Shown here one piece after another: positions 3,103-55,204 of a stretch of 64,000 nucleotides of DNA (its first letter is position 1; each line of letters starts with the position of its first letter). The translations under genes were made by a program, and so were the position numbers. The notes below the pieces were generated by a model. That model had not been told where the DNA came from. It worked only from the letters and a program-made list of their open reading frames with translations, and searched no databases. Location: sequence record OP744025, one strand, 5' to 3'. Origin of the DNA: Escherichia phage A5-4.

Positions 3103-3675
3103 ATGATGGAAAACATTACTATCTCCGACCTTCCTTCACAAACCTATCTGTCCCGAATTCAAAAGGGACGGGCTGTGAAAAAGGCCAATGAGCTACTTAA
3201 GCAGGGCTTCAATAAAGAAGCTTCTATTTCTGGAGCCATTGGCTCCGTTCTTGTTCAGAAATCTGCACAGAAAGAAGAGATGATTTCTTACGAAATTATC
3301 TACGAACCTGATACGCCGGATGCTCATGGACAATGGATGAGTAAAGAGACATTAGTTAAAGCACATGCAGATTTCAAGAAAGCTCAAGAAATCGGTGCGG
3401 TAACTGAAAACTTGTACCACTTGGTTGATACCGAAGCATTCAAGATCATAGATCATTGGATTCAGCCAGAAATTGATGTAACTGTCACACAAACAGGAGA
3501 AATCATAAAAGCAGGGTCATGGGTAGCAAAGGTTCAATATTCACCTGAAGTATGGGAGTTAAAGAAAGCTGGCATCGTCGGTGGATTATCTCTTCAGTGC
3601 GGTGGTATGTTGAATGAGGAAACAAATGAGCTATCCGATCTTGATTTCAGTATCGAATTGGAAGAGGAAGAATAA
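3103..3675 (+). CDS. XkdF-like putative prohead protease
   Basis: Motifs DAHGQW, GSWVAKV, GIVGGLSLQCGG resemble XkdF/DUF2213 family; ATG at 3103 after GGGAG RBS preferred over track TTG at 3058. Confidence 0.5.
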   Translation: MMENITISDLPSQTYLSRIQKGRAVKKANELLKQGFNKEASISGAIGSVLVQKSAQKEEMISYEIIYEPDTPDAHGQWMSKETLVKAHADFKKAQEIGAVTENLYHLVDTEAFKIIDHWIQPEIDVTVTQTGEIIKAGSWVAKVQYSPEVWELKKAGIVGGLSLQCGGMLNEETNELSDLDFSIELEEEE

Positions 3676-4769
3676 TGATTAAGACCCTTATAGAGAAAGG
3701 TCGCCAGATTAAATCTCGCGGAATTGCTCTAACTCACCGAGATCAAGGCTACAGTGCGAATAACCGCCACGTAAGCCTCCTCACTAAATCTGACATTGAC
3801 CCTAGCAAACTTACGGTTGATGTTATCAAAGCCCTTGAGCAAGTTCAAGTAACTATCAGTATGGAAGAGTTTTTACGTCGCTTCTTCCACATGTATTGTG
3901 ATGATGCTGAGTTACTTACTAAGCTGCTGGGCTTCACAACTAACTTCGAAGACGAATATGCTGATAAAGATCCTGAAGACTTGGATTCTTATACGGCTGA
4001 TTACATCCGTCGTCATCAAGAATATCTCGATGAGAAGCTTGAAACAATCACTATCATCAAGAAAGCAAAAGAAGGTGCTGACCTTTCTCTCGTTGAACGC
4101 TTCGAGTTAATTAAGACTCGCAAGCAGTTTGAAGACGGATGTAAAGAATTGGGCCTTGACTTTGGTGACAATTCAGAATTACGCAAACCAGAAACTGGTG
4201 AAGTAGTTAAATCAGCTACTAAGCCTGAACCTGTAAGCTCCGCTGGAGCGACCACAACCATCAAGGAGACTCCTGTGGAAAAAGAAGTAGATGTAACCAA
4301 GTCCCAACAATTCATTGATCTGATGAAAGCTAATGAAGCGTTGATGGCTCAGGTTGAAGGTATGAAAGAAACCTTCACCGCTGCTCAAGAAATCGTTAAA
4401 GCTCAGGCTGTTGCAAAACGTGAAGTTGCCTTGAACAAAGCTGCAAGTTTTGGTTTTGTTGCTGATGACCAACGTGAAGCTGTTGCTGACCTGATCGAAG
4501 ACCCAGCTAAAGCATCTGTTGTTGCTGTGCTGGAAAAAGCTGCTGCTGCTCTTAAAGAGAAAGACGAAGCTCTCGTCGCTAAAGATGCAGAAATCGAAGA
4601 GATCAAAAAATCCTTCGCTGACGGCAAAGAAGTAGGTGCTGATGGTCAACTGACTGAAGTTGCTAAAGGCTCTGAAGACGCTCAGGCTCGTTTGAACCGA
4701 GTAATCGCAGAACGTGCAGCAGAGATCGCTAAGGCTGCTAACGGCAATGCTGAATTTATTAACGCCTAA
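3675..4769 (+). CDS. Scaffolding-like coiled-coil protein
   Basis: A/E/K-rich acidic coiled-coil C-terminal half; between protease-like gene and capsid genes. Confidence 0.55.
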   Translation: MIKTLIEKGRQIKSRGIALTHRDQGYSANNRHVSLLTKSDIDPSKLTVDVIKALEQVQVTISMEEFLRRFFHMYCDDAELLTKLLGFTTNFEDEYADKDPEDLDSYTADYIRRHQEYLDEKLETITIIKKAKEGADLSLVERFELIKTRKQFEDGCKELGLDFGDNSELRKPETGEVVKSATKPEPVSSAGATTTIKETPVEKEVDVTKSQQFIDLMKANEALMAQVEGMKETFTAAQEIVKAQAVAKREVALNKAASFGFVADDQREAVADLIEDPAKASVVAVLEKAAAALKEKDEALVAKDAEIEEIKKSFADGKEVGADGQLTEVAKGSEDAQARLNRVIAERAAEIAKAANGNAEFINA

Positions 4770-42625: not shown

Positions 42626-43047
42626 ACTCCATAATCTATCTTAACAAGCTTCCCTTTGTAGTATCCAAAGTTTTTAGGAAATGCGTCGTACTCGAAGAAA
42701 TCTCGGTCAAGGGTTCTATCTTTATCGTTATCAACCTCATCATAAAGTTTTTGTAGATCAGCTGTAAATAATCCCTTATTCTCTACTGGTTTAGCCTTGT
42801 GCATCACAACCATAAGTCCGAATCTGTTTGAGTAAGCTATTGGGCATAGATGCGGGTTATTATACCCTTTCCACTGACCCTCCGTCATATTGCTGAGCAT
42901 TCCCTGAACAAACGCCTTCCATGAATTAAATCTTGGGAACTTAATCGCATACTTGTTTGTGATTATGACAATTCTCGTCCCACCACTCCTGTTTATCTGC
43001 ATCTTAATATCTCCAGACCTCGTTACTTGTTTCGATGAGGGCATCAT
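42622..43047 (-). CDS. Hypothetical protein with kinase-like motif spacing
   Basis: YAIKF, DRDFFEYDAFPKNFG, IDYG; only 141 aa. Confidence 0.5.
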   Translation of the reverse strand: MMPSSKQVTRSGDIKMQINRSGGTRIVIITNKYAIKFPRFNSWKAFVQGMLSNMTEGQWKGYNNPHLCPIAYSNRFGLMVVMHKAKPVENKGLFTADLQKLYDEVDNDKDRTLDRDFFEYDAFPKNFGYYKGKLVKIDYGV

Positions 43048-43085
43048 ACCAGAATGAATCTGTGTGTCAACACTTTTTATTCAGG

Positions 43086-43112
43086 CAATAAAAAACCACC
43101 CCGAAGGGTGGC
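43086..43112 (-). terminator. Rho-independent terminator after polymerase 3' exon
   Basis: On minus strand GCCACCC-TTCG-GGGTGG then TTTTTTATT. Confidence 0.7.
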
Positions 43113-43129
43113 TTAAGATTAAAATTTCA

Positions 43130-43429
43130 TTAGTGACAATCTCCCCAGCTGTATCCACAAAGGTATTCTCCAGTTATCATCACTGGTGATTTCATCATCT
43201 TAGCTGCTTGTTCGACACAACGAACAACCATCTCTCCTACAGGGCAGTATGTAATAGTGAAGATACCATTTTCATCTGGATCACACTTAAACTTCCCTTC
43301 CTTCACGCAATGACCATCCAAGATCATTTTCTTAGCCAAGCAAGCTTCTACAAATTTCTTCGCGTCAGCTTCATTGTCAAAGGTCCAAGTCTTCTTAAAC
43401 TTGTGTGGCACTTCAAGCTGGTATTCATC
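43130..43429 (-). CDS. DNA polymerase (family A) 3' exon
   Basis: Begins DEYQLEVPHK (motif C, cf. Klenow HDELVFEVHKDD); ends ...GYSWGDCH (cf. T7 ...GPNWAICH). Confidence 0.65.
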   Translation of the reverse strand, partial: DEYQLEVPHKFKKTWTFDNEADAKKFVEACLAKKMILDGHCVKEGKFKCDPDENGIFTITYCPVGEMVVRCVEQAAKMMKSPVMITGEYLCGYSWGDCH

Positions 43430-44201
43430 CAAAAGTTTAACGAGGTCGTTACTCTCGCCCACATCATTACATGTTGCCATACGTTTTCACGTATGGATCG
43501 GACTATATCACCATCCTTTTCAGGATGCTCCCCATTTCGACGGCACTTGCTCGCCTACGCCTCTCGGCTAGTCTCTGAACGTTAGGACCATGTGTAGTCA
43601 CAAGAGATGTGTGTCCAGTTTTTACGGATTTTTATGGACCTTACCACGTTGTAAGGATAACCCATATCCCGAATCTGTGCACTTCCATAACCTTGCCCCA
43701 GGAAGTTGCAAATCTCTCTAACCTCTTCTTCGGTAACTATACTTCTGGCGTTATCAACCCCTGTTGCTGAACGACATTTATCAGCAAAGGTTTTCTTGAT
43801 ATTTCCACCACGAGTTGTCCATTGGAGGTTTGAATAGTGGTTATTCCTTTTGTCAGGCCACTTATGATCAACCTCCGGCAAACCTTCAGGGTTTGGTACA
43901 AAACACTCTGCCACCAAAACGTGAACAGCCTTTGTAGTCGTCCTTTTGTTGAGATACAGACTTACAATAAGATACCCACGTCCATTATCAACTGCCGCCA
44001 TTGGTTTCCCTCGACGACCTATAATGGTCCCGTCTTCATAAACCTTGTAACCGAAATAATCTTTATATTCCACATGATCCTCTTCGCTGCTGATTAACAT
44101 AGTCTCATACTAACTCACACTTGAATTAATATCAACCTTAGTCTTCCAGCAATTAAAGGAGTTTTCGATGTGAGTTACCTCACAAAGCCACAATGTTACT
44201 T
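43430..44201 (-). mobile_element. Group I intron in DNA polymerase gene
   Basis: Group I elements R (GTTCAGAGACTAG) and S (GATATAGTCC) flanking a P8-like hairpin; free-standing HNH ORF; exon ends in U, intron ends in G; splice restores YYHDEYQLEV. Confidence 0.7.
43582..44100 (-). CDS. Intron-encoded HNH endonuclease
   Basis: GYLIVSL motif plus HNH core LVAECFVPNP...VDHKWPDKRNN...NLQWTT. Confidence 0.75.
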   Translation of the reverse strand: MLISSEEDHVEYKDYFGYKVYEDGTIIGRRGKPMAAVDNGRGYLIVSLYLNKRTTTKAVHVLVAECFVPNPEGLPEVDHKWPDKRNNHYSNLQWTTRGGNIKKTFADKCRSATGVDNARSIVTEEEVREICNFLGQGYGSAQIRDMGYPYNVVRSIKIRKNWTHISCDYTWS

Positions 44202-46085
44202 ATGGTAATAGATAATACGTCTAACGCCTTCATCATACCAACCTTTCTTGACCAACTGCCAGTGCAGGAGGATACCCACCAAGTCAAACAGTGCAGCACC
44301 ACCATTCTGCTGATAAGCATTAAGCAATGAGTGTTTGGAACGAGTGTAGATCTTACGCCCATCCAGACCATAGATGAATCGCTTACCGTTAGCTTCCCAA
44401 AACTTCTCTAATGCTTCTTTACGACCTTTCAAGCCGATGTTGCTATCCCAGAATGCGTCGATTACTGCTTGGGCTTTCTCAAGACTGATACCAAGCATTG
44501 ATGCAATCTTCGCTGCCTGTGCCCCGTACATGATTCCGTATGTCACCCCTTTACCTTCGCCACGAGAAACCTTCTTCCCTGCTGCTTTGGTATATGCTTC
44601 TGCGTTTCGGGAGTGAGCATCTCCAGATTCCATGATACGAAGATAAGCACCGCCATCGAAATCATAAGCGCCCCATGCTGCGATCATGCCTTCCAAGTTT
44701 GAACCGTCGATACCTACCTGATATTTACCCTCAGAGGCTCTGAATAGTTCACGCATCTCTTTACCGAGAAGAACTTTCTCATCCGGCTTAGGTACGTTTG
44801 CTACGATCGTATGCTTACGACGACCTGTGTTAGTTATTCCACTATAACGGGCCGGAAGTTTACCGTCAACTCGTAGACGTGGATGGTTAAGCCATCCGGT
44901 ATCAACCTTCTCTTCTTTCAGCGGGTCAAGAACAGATCGTCGGTTACGTAAAGACAGCCATTTAACAATCTGTTTAGCCATTTCACCATCTACTCGCTCA
45001 AGGTTAGGGCAAAGACCTTGCTGATCCTTAAGTTGCGGGGATGTTGGCAATGCACGAGCTTTCTTACGGAAAAACTTGAACATCTTTTCTTTATCTGACC
45101 ACTGCTTAGGTGTGATCGCCAAGCTTTTCAGAATCAGATCACGATACTCCGTCTGATCCAAATCTTCAATGTATTGACGAACAATCAGATCAACCTCACT
45201 ATCAGGACGCTGTTTCTTGAACTGATCTTTAGTTGCATCCTTTGTACGCCAAATTGTTGGGACCCACCCTGCATCACGGATCAGGAACTTCTTAACGTCG
45301 TCCTGGTTACCAATACGCATCGGAATCATAATGTCCGGCATCTTTTGTTCTTTGATATCCATCAAAGCACGAGCCATATCTTCCGGCGGCAAAGGAACAA
45401 GTCCTTGCTGCTTAACGTTTTGTGCACGGATAAAATCACCCATTTTGGATTCATCCTCTACACCGTGCTCAACACAATACTTGATCGCGGCGGCAGTAAG
45501 AGATCCGTCAGCCTTAAACGGCTTACTTGGTGCACCTTTAAACTCCAAGGCTTCCCAATTGATATTATAACCTAACTTCTCTAACCATTTCCAACCTGTA
45601 CCGGAAAGAGATCCATCACCCTTGAAAGGTTTAGATGGGAATGTCGGTTGTGCTGATTTCGACATCTCTTTCTTCGGCAACTTAGGTTCAACCTCTAACT
45701 CAATGTCTGTCATCATCTTATCGATACGATCACGAAGCTTGAGTGCTTTTTCTTCATCAAATGAAACACCCTGAATTTCTTGCTCAATCATCAGGTAGTC
45801 AGTCAACATACCTCGACGCAGGGCATTCTTCCAGTTGATCATTTTATACTTCTTCTGATCTTTGTCTGTTTCATCCTTATACATGAAGCGTTTATCATCC
45901 GGCATAGATTCACAAGAGATCTCTTTCATCAGAGCATCCCATACCATTTCGTTGATAATTACGTCTTCAATAATACGATCGCAATACTTCCAAAGTGGAA
46001 GGCCACGCCAATCTTCGATCGCCACTTTCTGGTTAGCTACTCGCATACCCCAAGCTTCAAGCCCGTGTGGCCCTACAGGCTTCAT
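44202..46085 (-). CDS. DNA polymerase (family A) polymerase-domain exon
   Basis: HGLEAWG (cf. T7 HALEAWG), Exo III-like DRIIEDVII, motif A/B region, ...GVRRIIYYH at exon end; track ORF reads through to stop at 44196. Confidence 0.75.
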
Positions 46086-46531
46086 TTTACCGTGACGGGG
46101 TTCTTTACCATCTCAGGACAACCGCGAGGCAGAGGGCGATCTGGATACAGTGTACGGGACATTGAAAGTGTATCGAAGATGTTTACTTGTTTACCATTAA
46201 TCGTACCCATGCAACCAGGGTCTGCAAACATATCGTAAGTTGTTCCAAGCATCTTCTTAAACAACTGGAGGTCGTAGCCGAAGATGTTGTGGATAGCAAT
46301 TGCTTTAGGCTCTGTGACAAACCACTCGTTTAATTCCTCAATGGTCCGAATCTTAAAGTTTTTACCTTTAGATTGGATAAATTTAACAGCTTGATCGTAA
46401 CCTTCCCGCTGGGGATCAAGAAAGATGTTCCAGTTATCTTTTTTATACTCTTTAAACAAGACGCAGTGAATCAGATCAACCTCTGTCAATAGACCATTCG
46501 CTTCCGCATCTCCAATAAATAAGCCTTTCAT
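46082..46531 (-). CDS. DNA polymerase N-terminal 3'-5' exonuclease segment
   Basis: Exo I DAEANGL and Exo II HNIFGYD; ATG at 46531 after AAGGAG RBS preferred over track start 46555; 4-nt overlap with next ORF in a different frame. Confidence 0.65.
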   Translation of the reverse strand: MKGLFIGDAEANGLLTEVDLIHCVLFKEYKKDNWNIFLDPQREGYDQAVKFIQSKGKNFKIRTIEELNEWFVTEPKAIAIHNIFGYDLQLFKKMLGTTYDMFADPGCMGTINGKQVNIFDTLSMSRTLYPDRPLPRGCPEMVKNPVTVK

Positions 46532-46604
46532 TTTTTCTCCTTCTTCAAGCTCCAACTAGACTAAAACAAAGCCCAGCCGGAGGTATGACCCTTCGGCTAG
46601 GTTA

Positions 46605-53519: not shown

Positions 53520-54268
53520 CGTTATGTTCGACAGGGTTCGCTACTCCCTGCCCGTTCTCTTACGAACTGCTACATGTCCCCATGCAGACCAGACTATATC
53601 TTCAACCTGTTTCCAGGTGCTATGCACTTCGGACCGCTTGGCCCTACTCTACTCGATTCAAGAGTCTAGCTCTTGTCTTTCGATAGTCGTTGCTCCTTCC
53701 TCTCAACCGCTTTGTAATTTGTCTTACGGTATCTCTGTGTATCCCAAAATGCTCTGCAATTTCTTTTTGTTGAAGCGTGGTATTAATAACCATTTCGTAA
53801 ACCTGCTTCTCAAAATCATCAGCATATCTATTTGGATTTCTTCTACCGTTGGCCCAACCATGATCGACATTTTCTTTCGTGGTTGTCCATTCCAAATTAA
53901 CATCGTTGTTGTTTTGCCTGTCGCTATCTTTATGATTAACAACAGGAAGGTTATGAGGGTTATCAACGTAGTGTTCAGCCACCAATTGGTGAATAAATCT
54001 ACGTGTAACCTTACCATCTTTACTTAACGAAACTCTAAGATACCCTGAACTATTGGTATCCGGTTTGAGTTTTTTAAGCTTCCGGTAAACATCTCCCCTT
54101 CGGGTAATGATGTAATTTTCAAAACCTTTTATTCTTTTCATTTCCCCCCCTTGCAATAAACAAAGAGGTTGAGAGGCTTGGATCAGGATTACGTGTTCTA
54201 CGCTTCCCCTGAGTTCACATAGTATTTAGTCGAGGCATCTCTGCCAAGGCTGGCTAGACTTAATGTTT
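53520..54268 (-). mobile_element. Group I intron in primase-helicase gene
   Basis: Intervening block splits the P-loop; S element GATATAGTCT and P8-like hairpin CACCTG-GAAA-CAGGT downstream of HNH ORF; splice as GAG|VKMGKS fits U-before/G-last rule. Confidence 0.65.
53644..54156 (-). CDS. Intron-encoded HNH endonuclease
   Basis: GYLRVSL plus LVAEHYVDNP...VNHKDSDRQNN...NLEWTT; paralog of 43582..44100. Confidence 0.75.
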   Translation of the reverse strand: MQGGEMKRIKGFENYIITRRGDVYRKLKKLKPDTNSSGYLRVSLSKDGKVTRRFIHQLVAEHYVDNPHNLPVVNHKDSDRQNNNDVNLEWTTTKENVDHGWANGRRNPNRYADDFEKQVYEMVINTTLQQKEIAEHFGIHRDTVRQITKRLRGRSNDYRKTRARLLNRVE

Positions 54269-55204
54269 ACCAGCACCGATGAAGTAACCTTCACCTGGAC
54301 GACGACCCAAGGTAAGCTTGGTCATGGTGGGCCAAGGGAACTTCTTGCCGAGTTTAGGGATCTCATGTGCCTTTTCGCGGAACTGTGAATAAGTCGAGAA
54401 ACCATCCGGCACATATTCCTTTGGCTTCATTGCAGCCCAAAACAACTGATCAGAAAGTCCTTTGTTATACATGTCGCAAGGGTCCATATCTTCTGGAATG
54501 TCCACGACCTTCATTTGTGGAATTACAGAGTATACCGCTGCAACTGCATCTTTACCTTTCATGATCCCTTTGGCCTTCTCTGCTTCTGTCGCACGGTCAG
54601 CATCGAAAGCTACGATAATCTCTTCAAACTTACTCAGAAGCTTATAGTTATTCTTCTGTGATAAGTTTTGCACGGCATTGGATGTACCGTTAGAGATAGA
54701 TACAACTGTGAAGTTTGGTTTACGAGTGGAACCATCCTTCGGTTTGTACTTCTCTGTCAATACCTGCCACAAGATTGCAGCATCATATTCACCTTCAGTG
54801 ATAAAGATCATACGTTTGGAAGACTTATTTGCACCTTCCAGCCCAAACATATCACAAGCCACAGATTGGAAACCAATAGTTGTAAAGTGACCTTTCTGTT
54901 GCTTAGGGATCGTAAGATCACGCTTCTTAAAACCTACAACCTTACCTTCTAATGTATACGGGAAATAATGTGCTTCTGGTGTCATACCGTCTTTAGCTGA
55001 CAGTTTGGTACGAATACCAAATCGTTTAGCTGTCTTTTCGTCGATACCGCGCTCAGGGATACTTTTGCACGGGTAAGTCAATACGTCTTCAACTGTTTCT
55101 TCTACACGAGACACACCACCACCATAATTACGTGCTACTGAAGCTTTAGGATTTTTATGTCCAAACTTATAACCGCCAAACAAACTTTCGCCAATAGTGC
55201 TCAT
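54269..55204 (-). CDS. Primase-helicase (T7 gp4-like) 5' exon, TOPRIM primase part
   Basis: TOPRIM IFITEGEYDAAIL and VAFDAD; ends ...GEGYFIGAG at start of Walker A; no zinc-ribbon Cys motifs. Confidence 0.7.

Follow-up and report, generated by a model that had tools for sequence, protein, structure and literature searches.

A group I intron carrying a predicted HNH endonuclease gene within motif C of the family-A DNA polymerase gene of Escherichia phage A5-4

The 772 nt at 43430–44201 on the minus strand of the analysed window (a 64,000-nt stretch of the Escherichia phage A5-4 genome, record OP744025) very probably constitute a group I intron of the IA type that is mobile and self-splicing, interrupts a family-A DNA polymerase gene and carries a homing-endonuclease gene. 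The window derives from an rV5-like phage (Vequintavirinae), and the polymerase gene lies on its minus strand. The region was 97% identical to that of the Escherichia phages A73, W70 and vB_EcoM-LTH01 (Vequintavirinae) and approximately 95% identical to that of UPEC06 and A7_1, in which the polymerase is encoded by one uninterrupted CDS.

Comparison with these uninterrupted alleles defined the boundaries of the insert. In BLAST alignments with UPEC06 and A7_1, the window aligned without a break as far as 44202, and the alignment picked up again at 43429; the insert is therefore 43430–44201 (772 nt, starting with AAGUAAC and ending with ...CUUUUG). The breaks fell at the same bases as the junctions 44202|44201 and 43430|43429, which the first-pass annotation had proposed from the letters of the window. 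The intron-less sequence of UPEC06 and A7_1 reads ...TAT CAT|GAT GAA..., corresponding to YYH|DEYQLEV, and exact removal of the insert from the window restored the host frame as ...RRIIYYH|DEYQLEV..., with the same junction in UPEC06, A7_1, CR3 and P7_Pc. Exon 1 (44202–46085, minus strand) ends with ...TAC CAT, its last base being U 44202. In the unspliced sequence only one more codon precedes a stop codon (AAG TAA), and the ORF list accordingly contained an ORF at 44196–46085 (minus strand) ending with ...GVRRIIYYHK*, as had been described. Exon 2 (43130–43429, minus strand) extends from GAT GAA, encoding the Asp-Glu of motif C, to ...GYSWGDCH*. The ORF that contains it (43130–43480, minus strand; 116 aa) was also listed and carries LLDEYQLEVPHK...GYSWGDCH. 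The end of exon 1 was ACCAT in all intron-containing alleles and TATCAT or TACCAC in intron-less alleles, with the differences at synonymous positions, a pattern that fits a constraint from P1 pairing.

A 3′ splice site after G 43478, where the Rfam alignment ended, would also be in frame (YYH|ATCNDVGESNDLVKLLDEY...). This candidate was rejected because the intron-less alleles do not have those 16 codons, because the stretch that it would leave outside the intron comprises helices P9.1 and P9.2 with compensatory changes, and because both P10 and the terminal G suit an intron end at 43430.

Profile searches were consistent with a single polymerase divided between the two flanking ORFs. The Pfam DNA_pol_A match on the exon-1 ORF alone covered profile positions 113–279 of 381, and joining the exons lengthened the match from profile position 279 to 345. 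Both flanking ORFs were assigned to the polymerase family phrog_8888 in PHROGs, where they matched the adjacent profile segments 1–185 and 169–295. When the joined protein was aligned to T7 DNA polymerase, riiyyHDEyql was placed against ymawvHDEiqv, and the HDE of motif C was thus restored, as the first-pass annotation had expected. The insertion accordingly lies inside motif C, between the His and the Asp-Glu, as indicated by both the intron-less alleles and the T7 alignment. The polymerase gene of the window also carries an apparent frameshift, a one-base deletion within 46080–46100 by which the exonuclease domain is cut off from the polymerase.

The identity of the insert as a group I intron had been suggested from near-consensus core elements, and these were located again on the minus strand: the R element GTTCAGAGACTAG at 43568–43580, the S element GATATAGTCC at 43500–43509, and the hairpin CATCC/GGATG at 43523–43527 and 43512–43516, which corresponds to P8. 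The combination of R core and S core (from the P7 5′ strand to S) occurred once in the window, against 0.03 occurrences expected by chance. A search of the whole 64-kb window against Rfam at gathering thresholds gave no match. At an E-value threshold, the group I model RF00028 matched 43478–44211 (minus strand) over its full length (model positions 1–253) with a score of 42.9 bits (E = 2.5e-9 in a 1.2-kb segment and 1.3e-7 in the whole window), short of the gathering score (50 bits). The RF00028 check that had been recommended for the minus strand was therefore positive at the E-value threshold and missed the intron at the gathering threshold. Relative to the model, the P6 loop contained a 497-nt insert, and P7 was separated from the P3 3′ strand by 32 nt. 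Among copies at the same site in other phages, JEP1 (73.7 bits), VLCpiM5b (69.8 bits), CR9 (56.7 bits) and PVP-SE1 (54.4 bits) all exceeded the gathering score, and phiTE, SSE121 and FV3 scored 48.7, 39.3 and 30.4 bits, respectively. Given that the two top scores belonged to ORF-less introns (JEP1 and VLCpiM5b), the low score of the window copy suggests insert penalties rather than loss of the core. The full-length RF00028 match, together with a structure backed by covariation, bore out the assignment to group I.

The secondary structure from P1 to P9.2 was drawn by hand on the window copy, in which every helix was fully paired, and was tested on an alignment of 12 homologous intron cores from which peripheral inserts had been taken out. 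The alignment included two IMG/VR contigs, one similar to Av-05 and one from a distant phage with the exon junction MIEYH|DEVQL. For the 58 pairs in 12 helices, 98.8% of the cells across the 12 homologues were standard-paired, compared with 35%–43% when the partners were slid by 1–3 columns. Compensatory changes on both sides were found at nearly half of the pairs (28/58), and the observed values were reached by none of 500 shuffles. Two pairs of P4 were left out of the count because MAFFT misplaces the bulged base of this helix. The P3–P8 core, including the P3/P7 pseudoknot, was kept by compensatory change across the 12 homologues, and P2, P3, P7.2, P8, P9 and P9.2 each showed several fully compensated variants.

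All elements of the structure are on the minus strand. P1 (44188–44205) is formed by the exon sequence CCAU and the intron AA (44205–44200) with the internal guide UUGUGG (44193–44188); the U·G wobble that it places at the 5′ splice site, with U 44202, was unchanged across the 12 homologues. The P2 hairpin (UGUGAG-GUAA-CUCACA, 44169–44184) occurred in five sequence variants, each fully paired, and all six of its pairs were compensatory. The stretch at 44141–44161 contains the 5′ strands of P3 (44156–44161), P4 (44146–44151) and P5 (44141–44143), and that at 44086–44098 contains the 3′ strands of P5 (44096–44098) and P4 (44088–44093) and the 5′ strand of P6 (44086–44087). The P4 3′ strand at 44088–44093 is the Q element, UAAUCAGCAGC. 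Compensatory changes affected four of the six pairs of P3, and exchanges from G-C to U-A and from G-C to A-U were seen in P4/P5. The R element (43569–43580 in the structure) supplies the P6 3′ strand (43579–43580) and the P7 5′ strand GACUA (43569–43573). It is followed at 43539–43568 by P7.1 (GCC-GAGA-GGC, 43559–43568), conserved without covariation, and P7.2 (GGCG...CGUC, 43539–43555), in which three of four pairs were compensatory. The segment at 43501–43533 comprises the P3 3′ strand (43528–43533), P8 (43512–43527; 4/5 pairs compensatory) and the S element with the P7 3′ strand UAGUC (43501–43505), P7 having one compensatory pair. Further downstream, P9 with a GAAA loop (43477–43496), P9.1 (43461–43474) and P9.2 (43439–43459) occupy 43439–43496, with compensatory changes at 4/8, 1/3 and 3/6 pairs, respectively. 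The exon 2 sequence GAUG (43426–43429) pairs with CAUU of the guide sequence (44192–44195) as P10, which was kept in 12/12 homologues. Under the criteria of Michel and Westhof, subgroup IA is marked by two additional helices, P7.1 and P7.2, which follow the 5′ strand of P7 and precede the 3′ strand of P3; by these criteria, the intron would be typical of subgroup IA (IA2-like).

The predicted endonuclease gene (43582–44100, minus strand; 172 aa from ATG 44100) lies in the P6 loop and extends as far as the R element. An HNH ORF between the exons had been recognised in the first-pass annotation, where it was called free-standing; the ORF is present, but, being located within the P6 loop of the intron, it is not free-standing. 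Its first codons overlap the P5, P4 and P6 strands, with ATG 44100 in the P5/P4 3′ strands. An alternative start, GTG 44073, is preceded by AAGAGGA at 44078–44084, and the HNH homologues of SSE121 and FV3 begin near this position. The predicted protein matched PHROG 59 (HNH endonuclease) at 1e-33, in agreement with the function first proposed for it, and scored 23.9 bits against Pfam HNH_3, for which the cut-off (GA) is 24.8 bits. Among solved structures, the sole match was I-HmuI (1U3E, E = 3.5e-5), with the DH...NN...N residues aligned, and tblastn matches, among them I-BasI, came from 736 phage records. The ORF was intact in CR9, SSE121, FV3 and Av-05, with protein identities of 49%–74% to the window, dN of 0.2–0.5 and saturated dS, so that dN/dS was not computable for most pairs and the conclusion is qualitative. 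The maintenance of an intact ORF across such divergent phages, together with these dN and dS values, indicates that the gene is under purifying selection.

A promoter-like site (TTGATA-17-TAGTAT, 44107–44135, minus strand) precedes the HNH ORF and lies within the P5 extension loop. With 9/12 matches, this hypothetical site is on its own not above chance, and a promoter scan yielded nine sites against 7.0 ± 2.9 expected, that is, no excess over chance. The P5 loop of phiTE/CB7 contains TTGACA-16-TATGAT at the same position, and the PVP-SE1 record has an annotated promoter at the same place. Because of this conserved position in relatives, and not because of the scan, an intron-internal promoter for the endonuclease gene is plausible.

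The intron lineage is already known: it is annotated in relatives, and its splicing has been shown in Pectobacterium phage CB7. Buttimer et al. (2020) described the polymerase gene of CB7 as having two introns with HNH genes, and the one holding CB7_50 (between CB7_49 and CB7_51) was demonstrated by RT-PCR and Sanger sequencing to be spliced in infected cells (PMC7344957). The CB7_50 intron has the same insertion site as that of the window, and its core is 88% identical. Orthologues in Vequintavirinae also occur in PBES02, the rV5-like FV3 and phages of the BASEL collection, for which intron boundaries were annotated by comparative genomics (PMC8594841); in the record of the BASEL phage WalterGehring, the polymerase is a joined CDS. 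An identical copy of the intron is already in GenBank. The present analysis adds a covariation-supported secondary structure for this lineage and the observation that one ribozyme core is combined with three different endonuclease genes or none. It also implies that, in records such as those of A73, W70 and LTH01, the two ‘DNA polymerase’ CDSs should become one joined CDS and the intervening ‘hypothetical protein’ should be an intron-encoded HNH endonuclease.

Both the structure and the CB7 orthologue suggest that the intron is spliced in A5-4, and a pathway can be proposed from the fold. In the pre-mRNA, P1 would form between the exon 1 end CCAU and the internal guide sequence, placing the U·G wobble at the splice site, and an exogenous guanosine occupying P7 would then attack after U 44202. 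Subsequently, P10 (GAUG/CAUU) would position exon 2, and the free 3′ OH of exon 1 would attack after the terminal G 43430. The spliced RNA junction would be ...TATTACCAT|GATGAATACC..., and the ligated mRNA would encode one polymerase containing ...IIYYHDEYQLEV.... The I-HmuI-like HNH gene in the P6 loop, possibly expressed from its own promoter in the P5 loop, could account for mobility: in a mixed infection, its product would presumably nick or cleave polymerase alleles that have no intron, close to the insertion site, and recombinational repair could copy the intron and adjacent exon sequence into the intron-less allele (homing).

Readings without splicing at the RNA level were also considered. 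If the insert were not removed from the RNA, two polymerase polypeptides, one encoded by exon 1 and ending with YYHK and the other being the 116-aa product from ATG 43480, would have to assemble post-translationally. Two-polypeptide assembly has been reported for the Aeh1 NrdA gene, which is split by mobE. The GenBank records of A73, CR9, phiTE and others indeed annotate two ‘DNA polymerase’ CDSs, and one HNH-associated insertion, in another gene, is reported not to have been spliced in CB7 (PMC7344957). However, such a split would divide motif C, leaving the His on one polypeptide and the catalytic Asp-Glu on the other. ATG 43480 (43478–43480) is buried in the 8-bp P9 stem, no Shine-Dalgarno sequence is evident upstream of it, and the first 17 codons of the 116-aa ORF are intron sequence missing from intron-less homologues. 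Furthermore, a fold kept by 28 compensatory pairs would be purposeless if no splicing occurred, and the orthologous CB7 intron does splice. We thus consider the assembly of two polypeptides very unlikely. Removal at the protein level, by an intein or another in-frame insertion, would suit the location in a conserved catalytic motif, and inteins are common in phages of this group (PMC7344957). This explanation is nevertheless excluded by stop codons, since the exon 1 frame ends two codons into the insert (AAG TAA); moreover, the HNH ORF uses another register, and what lies on either side of it is non-coding ribozyme sequence.

A decaying or impaired intron with a recognisable core, but with inefficient splicing or dependence on a protein cofactor and with an HNH gene inactive for homing, would be compatible with the RF00028 score of 42.9 bits, compared with 56.7 bits for the CR9 copy of the same architecture, and the polymerase frameshift in the window might mean that the genome is defective or poorly sequenced. 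Against this, the window copy shows full pairing in all helices from P1 to P9.2, its HNH ORF is of full length and aligns at the catalytic residues, and copies that are 100% or 99.9% identical are present in three independently isolated, viable phages. Because the polymerase is essential, a non-splicing copy should be lethal. Impairment of the intron is hence very unlikely.

Group I introns with HNH genes have been known in phage polymerase genes since SPO1. The subgroup IA introns of T4 td and nrdB (I-TevI and I-TevII) likewise have P7.1/P7.2 and an endonuclease ORF in a loop outside the core, and interrupt a gene of nucleotide metabolism at a codon for the catalytic site; they differ from the window in their GIY-YIG endonucleases and host genes, whereas the window has an HNH gene in a polymerase gene. 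The introns with I-HmuI (in the SPO1 polymerase gene) and I-BasI resemble that of the window as phage family-A polymerase group I introns with nicking HNH endonucleases, and I-HmuI has distant protein similarity to the HNH protein of the window (E = 3.5e-5). For E. coli Pol I, we take His881-Asp882-Glu883 to be motif C (QVHDE). One report assigns the introns of phage family-A polymerase genes to three sites; there, the I-HmuI and I-BasI introns are at site 674, in the fingers subdomain and not, as in the window, at motif C, and introns of the T7-like phages PhiI and W31 are at ‘site 881’, numbered as in E. coli Pol I (PMC3428280). The PhiI/W31 introns are similar to that of the window in their subgroup (IA), in being located in a family-A phage polymerase gene and in having an HNH ORF in P6a, although their hosts are podoviruses and the window is from an rV5-like myovirus. 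With residue 881 as the motif C His, the PhiI/W31 insertion site, as given in this secondary citation, would be that of the window. DNA searches with the window intron and the ORF-less JEP1 intron returned no T7-like record among the matches listed.

Within Vequintavirinae, the same intron was found at the same codon boundary (YYH|DE, CAT|GAT) in many relatives, with a ribozyme core 73%–94% identical to that of the window across the subfamily. It was 99.9%–100% identical in A73, W70 and LTH01 and absent from UPEC06 and A7_1, that is, a presence/absence polymorphism exists among phages with exons 95%–97% identical. The passenger genes differed among the copies. The I-HmuI-like HNH gene in P6 is shared by the window, CR9, SSE121, FV3 and Av-05. 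Unlike the window, phiTE/CB7 have a short, unrelated HNH gene (127 aa) with its start in the P5/P4 strands, the passenger of PVP-SE1 is a LAGLIDADG gene located after P7, in the P7.1 region, and the introns of VLCpiM5b, JEP1 and the IMG/VR contig L017 contain no ORF. It is possible, although we lean slightly away from it, that the motif-C intron is a single conserved ribozyme chassis independently colonised by unrelated endonuclease genes and perhaps moved between unrelated phage families. The three passenger types at three peripheral sites, the persistence of ORF-less forms alongside them and the putative P5-loop promoter may reflect such a history. If so, these introns would provide a natural series of endonuclease-gene invasion, replacement and loss.

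The sequence next to the insertion site also differed between intron-bearing and intron-less alleles. Over the last 30 nt before the site, the window had 7–8 differences from the intron-less alleles, all synonymous; the background in the 600 nt leading up to this stretch was approximately 1–2 differences per 30 nt. The intron-bearing A73 was the same as the window in these 30 nt. This cluster looks like a co-conversion tract or, alternatively, target-site changes that would shield the intron-bearing allele. If the ribozyme has indeed served as a chassis for successive endonuclease genes, the cluster, with eight synonymous changes in the 27 nt before the site (within 44203–44230), would mark endonuclease recognition or a co-conversion tract. 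A second intron was observed in the helicase gene. Near-identical E. coli phages differ reciprocally in their polymerase and helicase introns, and this reciprocal difference offers a convenient phage pair for homing experiments.

The primase/helicase gene carries a second group I intron, which lies on the minus strand at 53520..54268, splits the Walker A motif and contains an HNH ORF of its own (53644..54156, minus strand). Its 749 nt are the exact length missing at this position from A73 and LTH01, two closely related Escherichia phages. Exon 1 closes in U (GGU| at 54269), the terminal G of the intron is 53520, and with the intron removed the gene reads GAG|VKMGKS in the same frame as in A73. 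Recognisable in the sequence are a P1 helix (GCUGGU/GCCAGC), an R-like element (CAACGACUAU) and an S-like one (GAUAUAGUC); the Rfam score was just 24.6 bits (E 0.04).

The polymerase and helicase introns showed reciprocal presence among near-identical phages. Of the two, only the polymerase intron occurs in A73 and LTH01 and only the helicase intron in A7_1 and UPEC06, and the window contains both (43430..44201 and 53520..54268).

The conserved ribozyme core of the polymerase intron was found with different passenger genes. In PVP-SE1, the passenger is a LAGLIDADG gene located 3′ of P7; in phiTE and CB7, it is a short, unrelated HNH gene that begins in the P5/P4 strands and is preceded by a near-consensus promoter. 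VLCpiM5b, JEP1 and a distant phage from IMG/VR have the core without any ORF.

Upstream of the polymerase intron, a cluster of synonymous differences distinguished the window from intron-less alleles (44203..44230, minus strand). The 30 nt 5′ of the intron site contained seven to eight differences, every one synonymous, against a background of approximately one to two per 30 nt, and intron-bearing A73 showed none relative to the window across 44203..44230. Exon 1 ended in ACCAT in all 12 intron-bearing alleles. The cluster likely reflects a co-conversion tract, immunity of the endonuclease target or a constraint imposed by P1.

A frameshift was found within the polymerase gene (46082..46092, minus strand) in comparison with UPEC06, A7_1 and A73, all of which read unbroken through the site (...NPVTGKMKPVG...). 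One A is missing in the window between 46092 and 46091 (CACAGG to CACGG), and because of this the exonuclease-domain ORF (46082..46555) ends at a TGA, which overlaps an ATG at 46085 (ATGA). Either the missing A is an error in sequencing, or the gene is truly split, with translational restart.

Directly 3′ of the polymerase stop codon lies a strong terminator-like hairpin (43093..43114, minus strand), made up of a 9-bp stem and a T run, and beyond it a near-consensus promoter for the next gene (43043..43070, minus strand; TTGACA-16-TATGAT with TG). Just 3′ of its polymerase gene, A7_1 has an additional 504-nt ORF encoding a hypothetical protein (3228..3731 of its locus), which is missing from the window (compared at about 43120..43160); at the equivalent position, CB7 has a free-standing HNH gene.

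Among the MG0656xx records whose label is ‘Campylobacter phage’ (Campylobacter jejuni), several contain polymerase introns of the rV5-like type, approximately 97% identical to those of Escherichia coli Vequintavirus phages. The host labels of these records appear doubtful.
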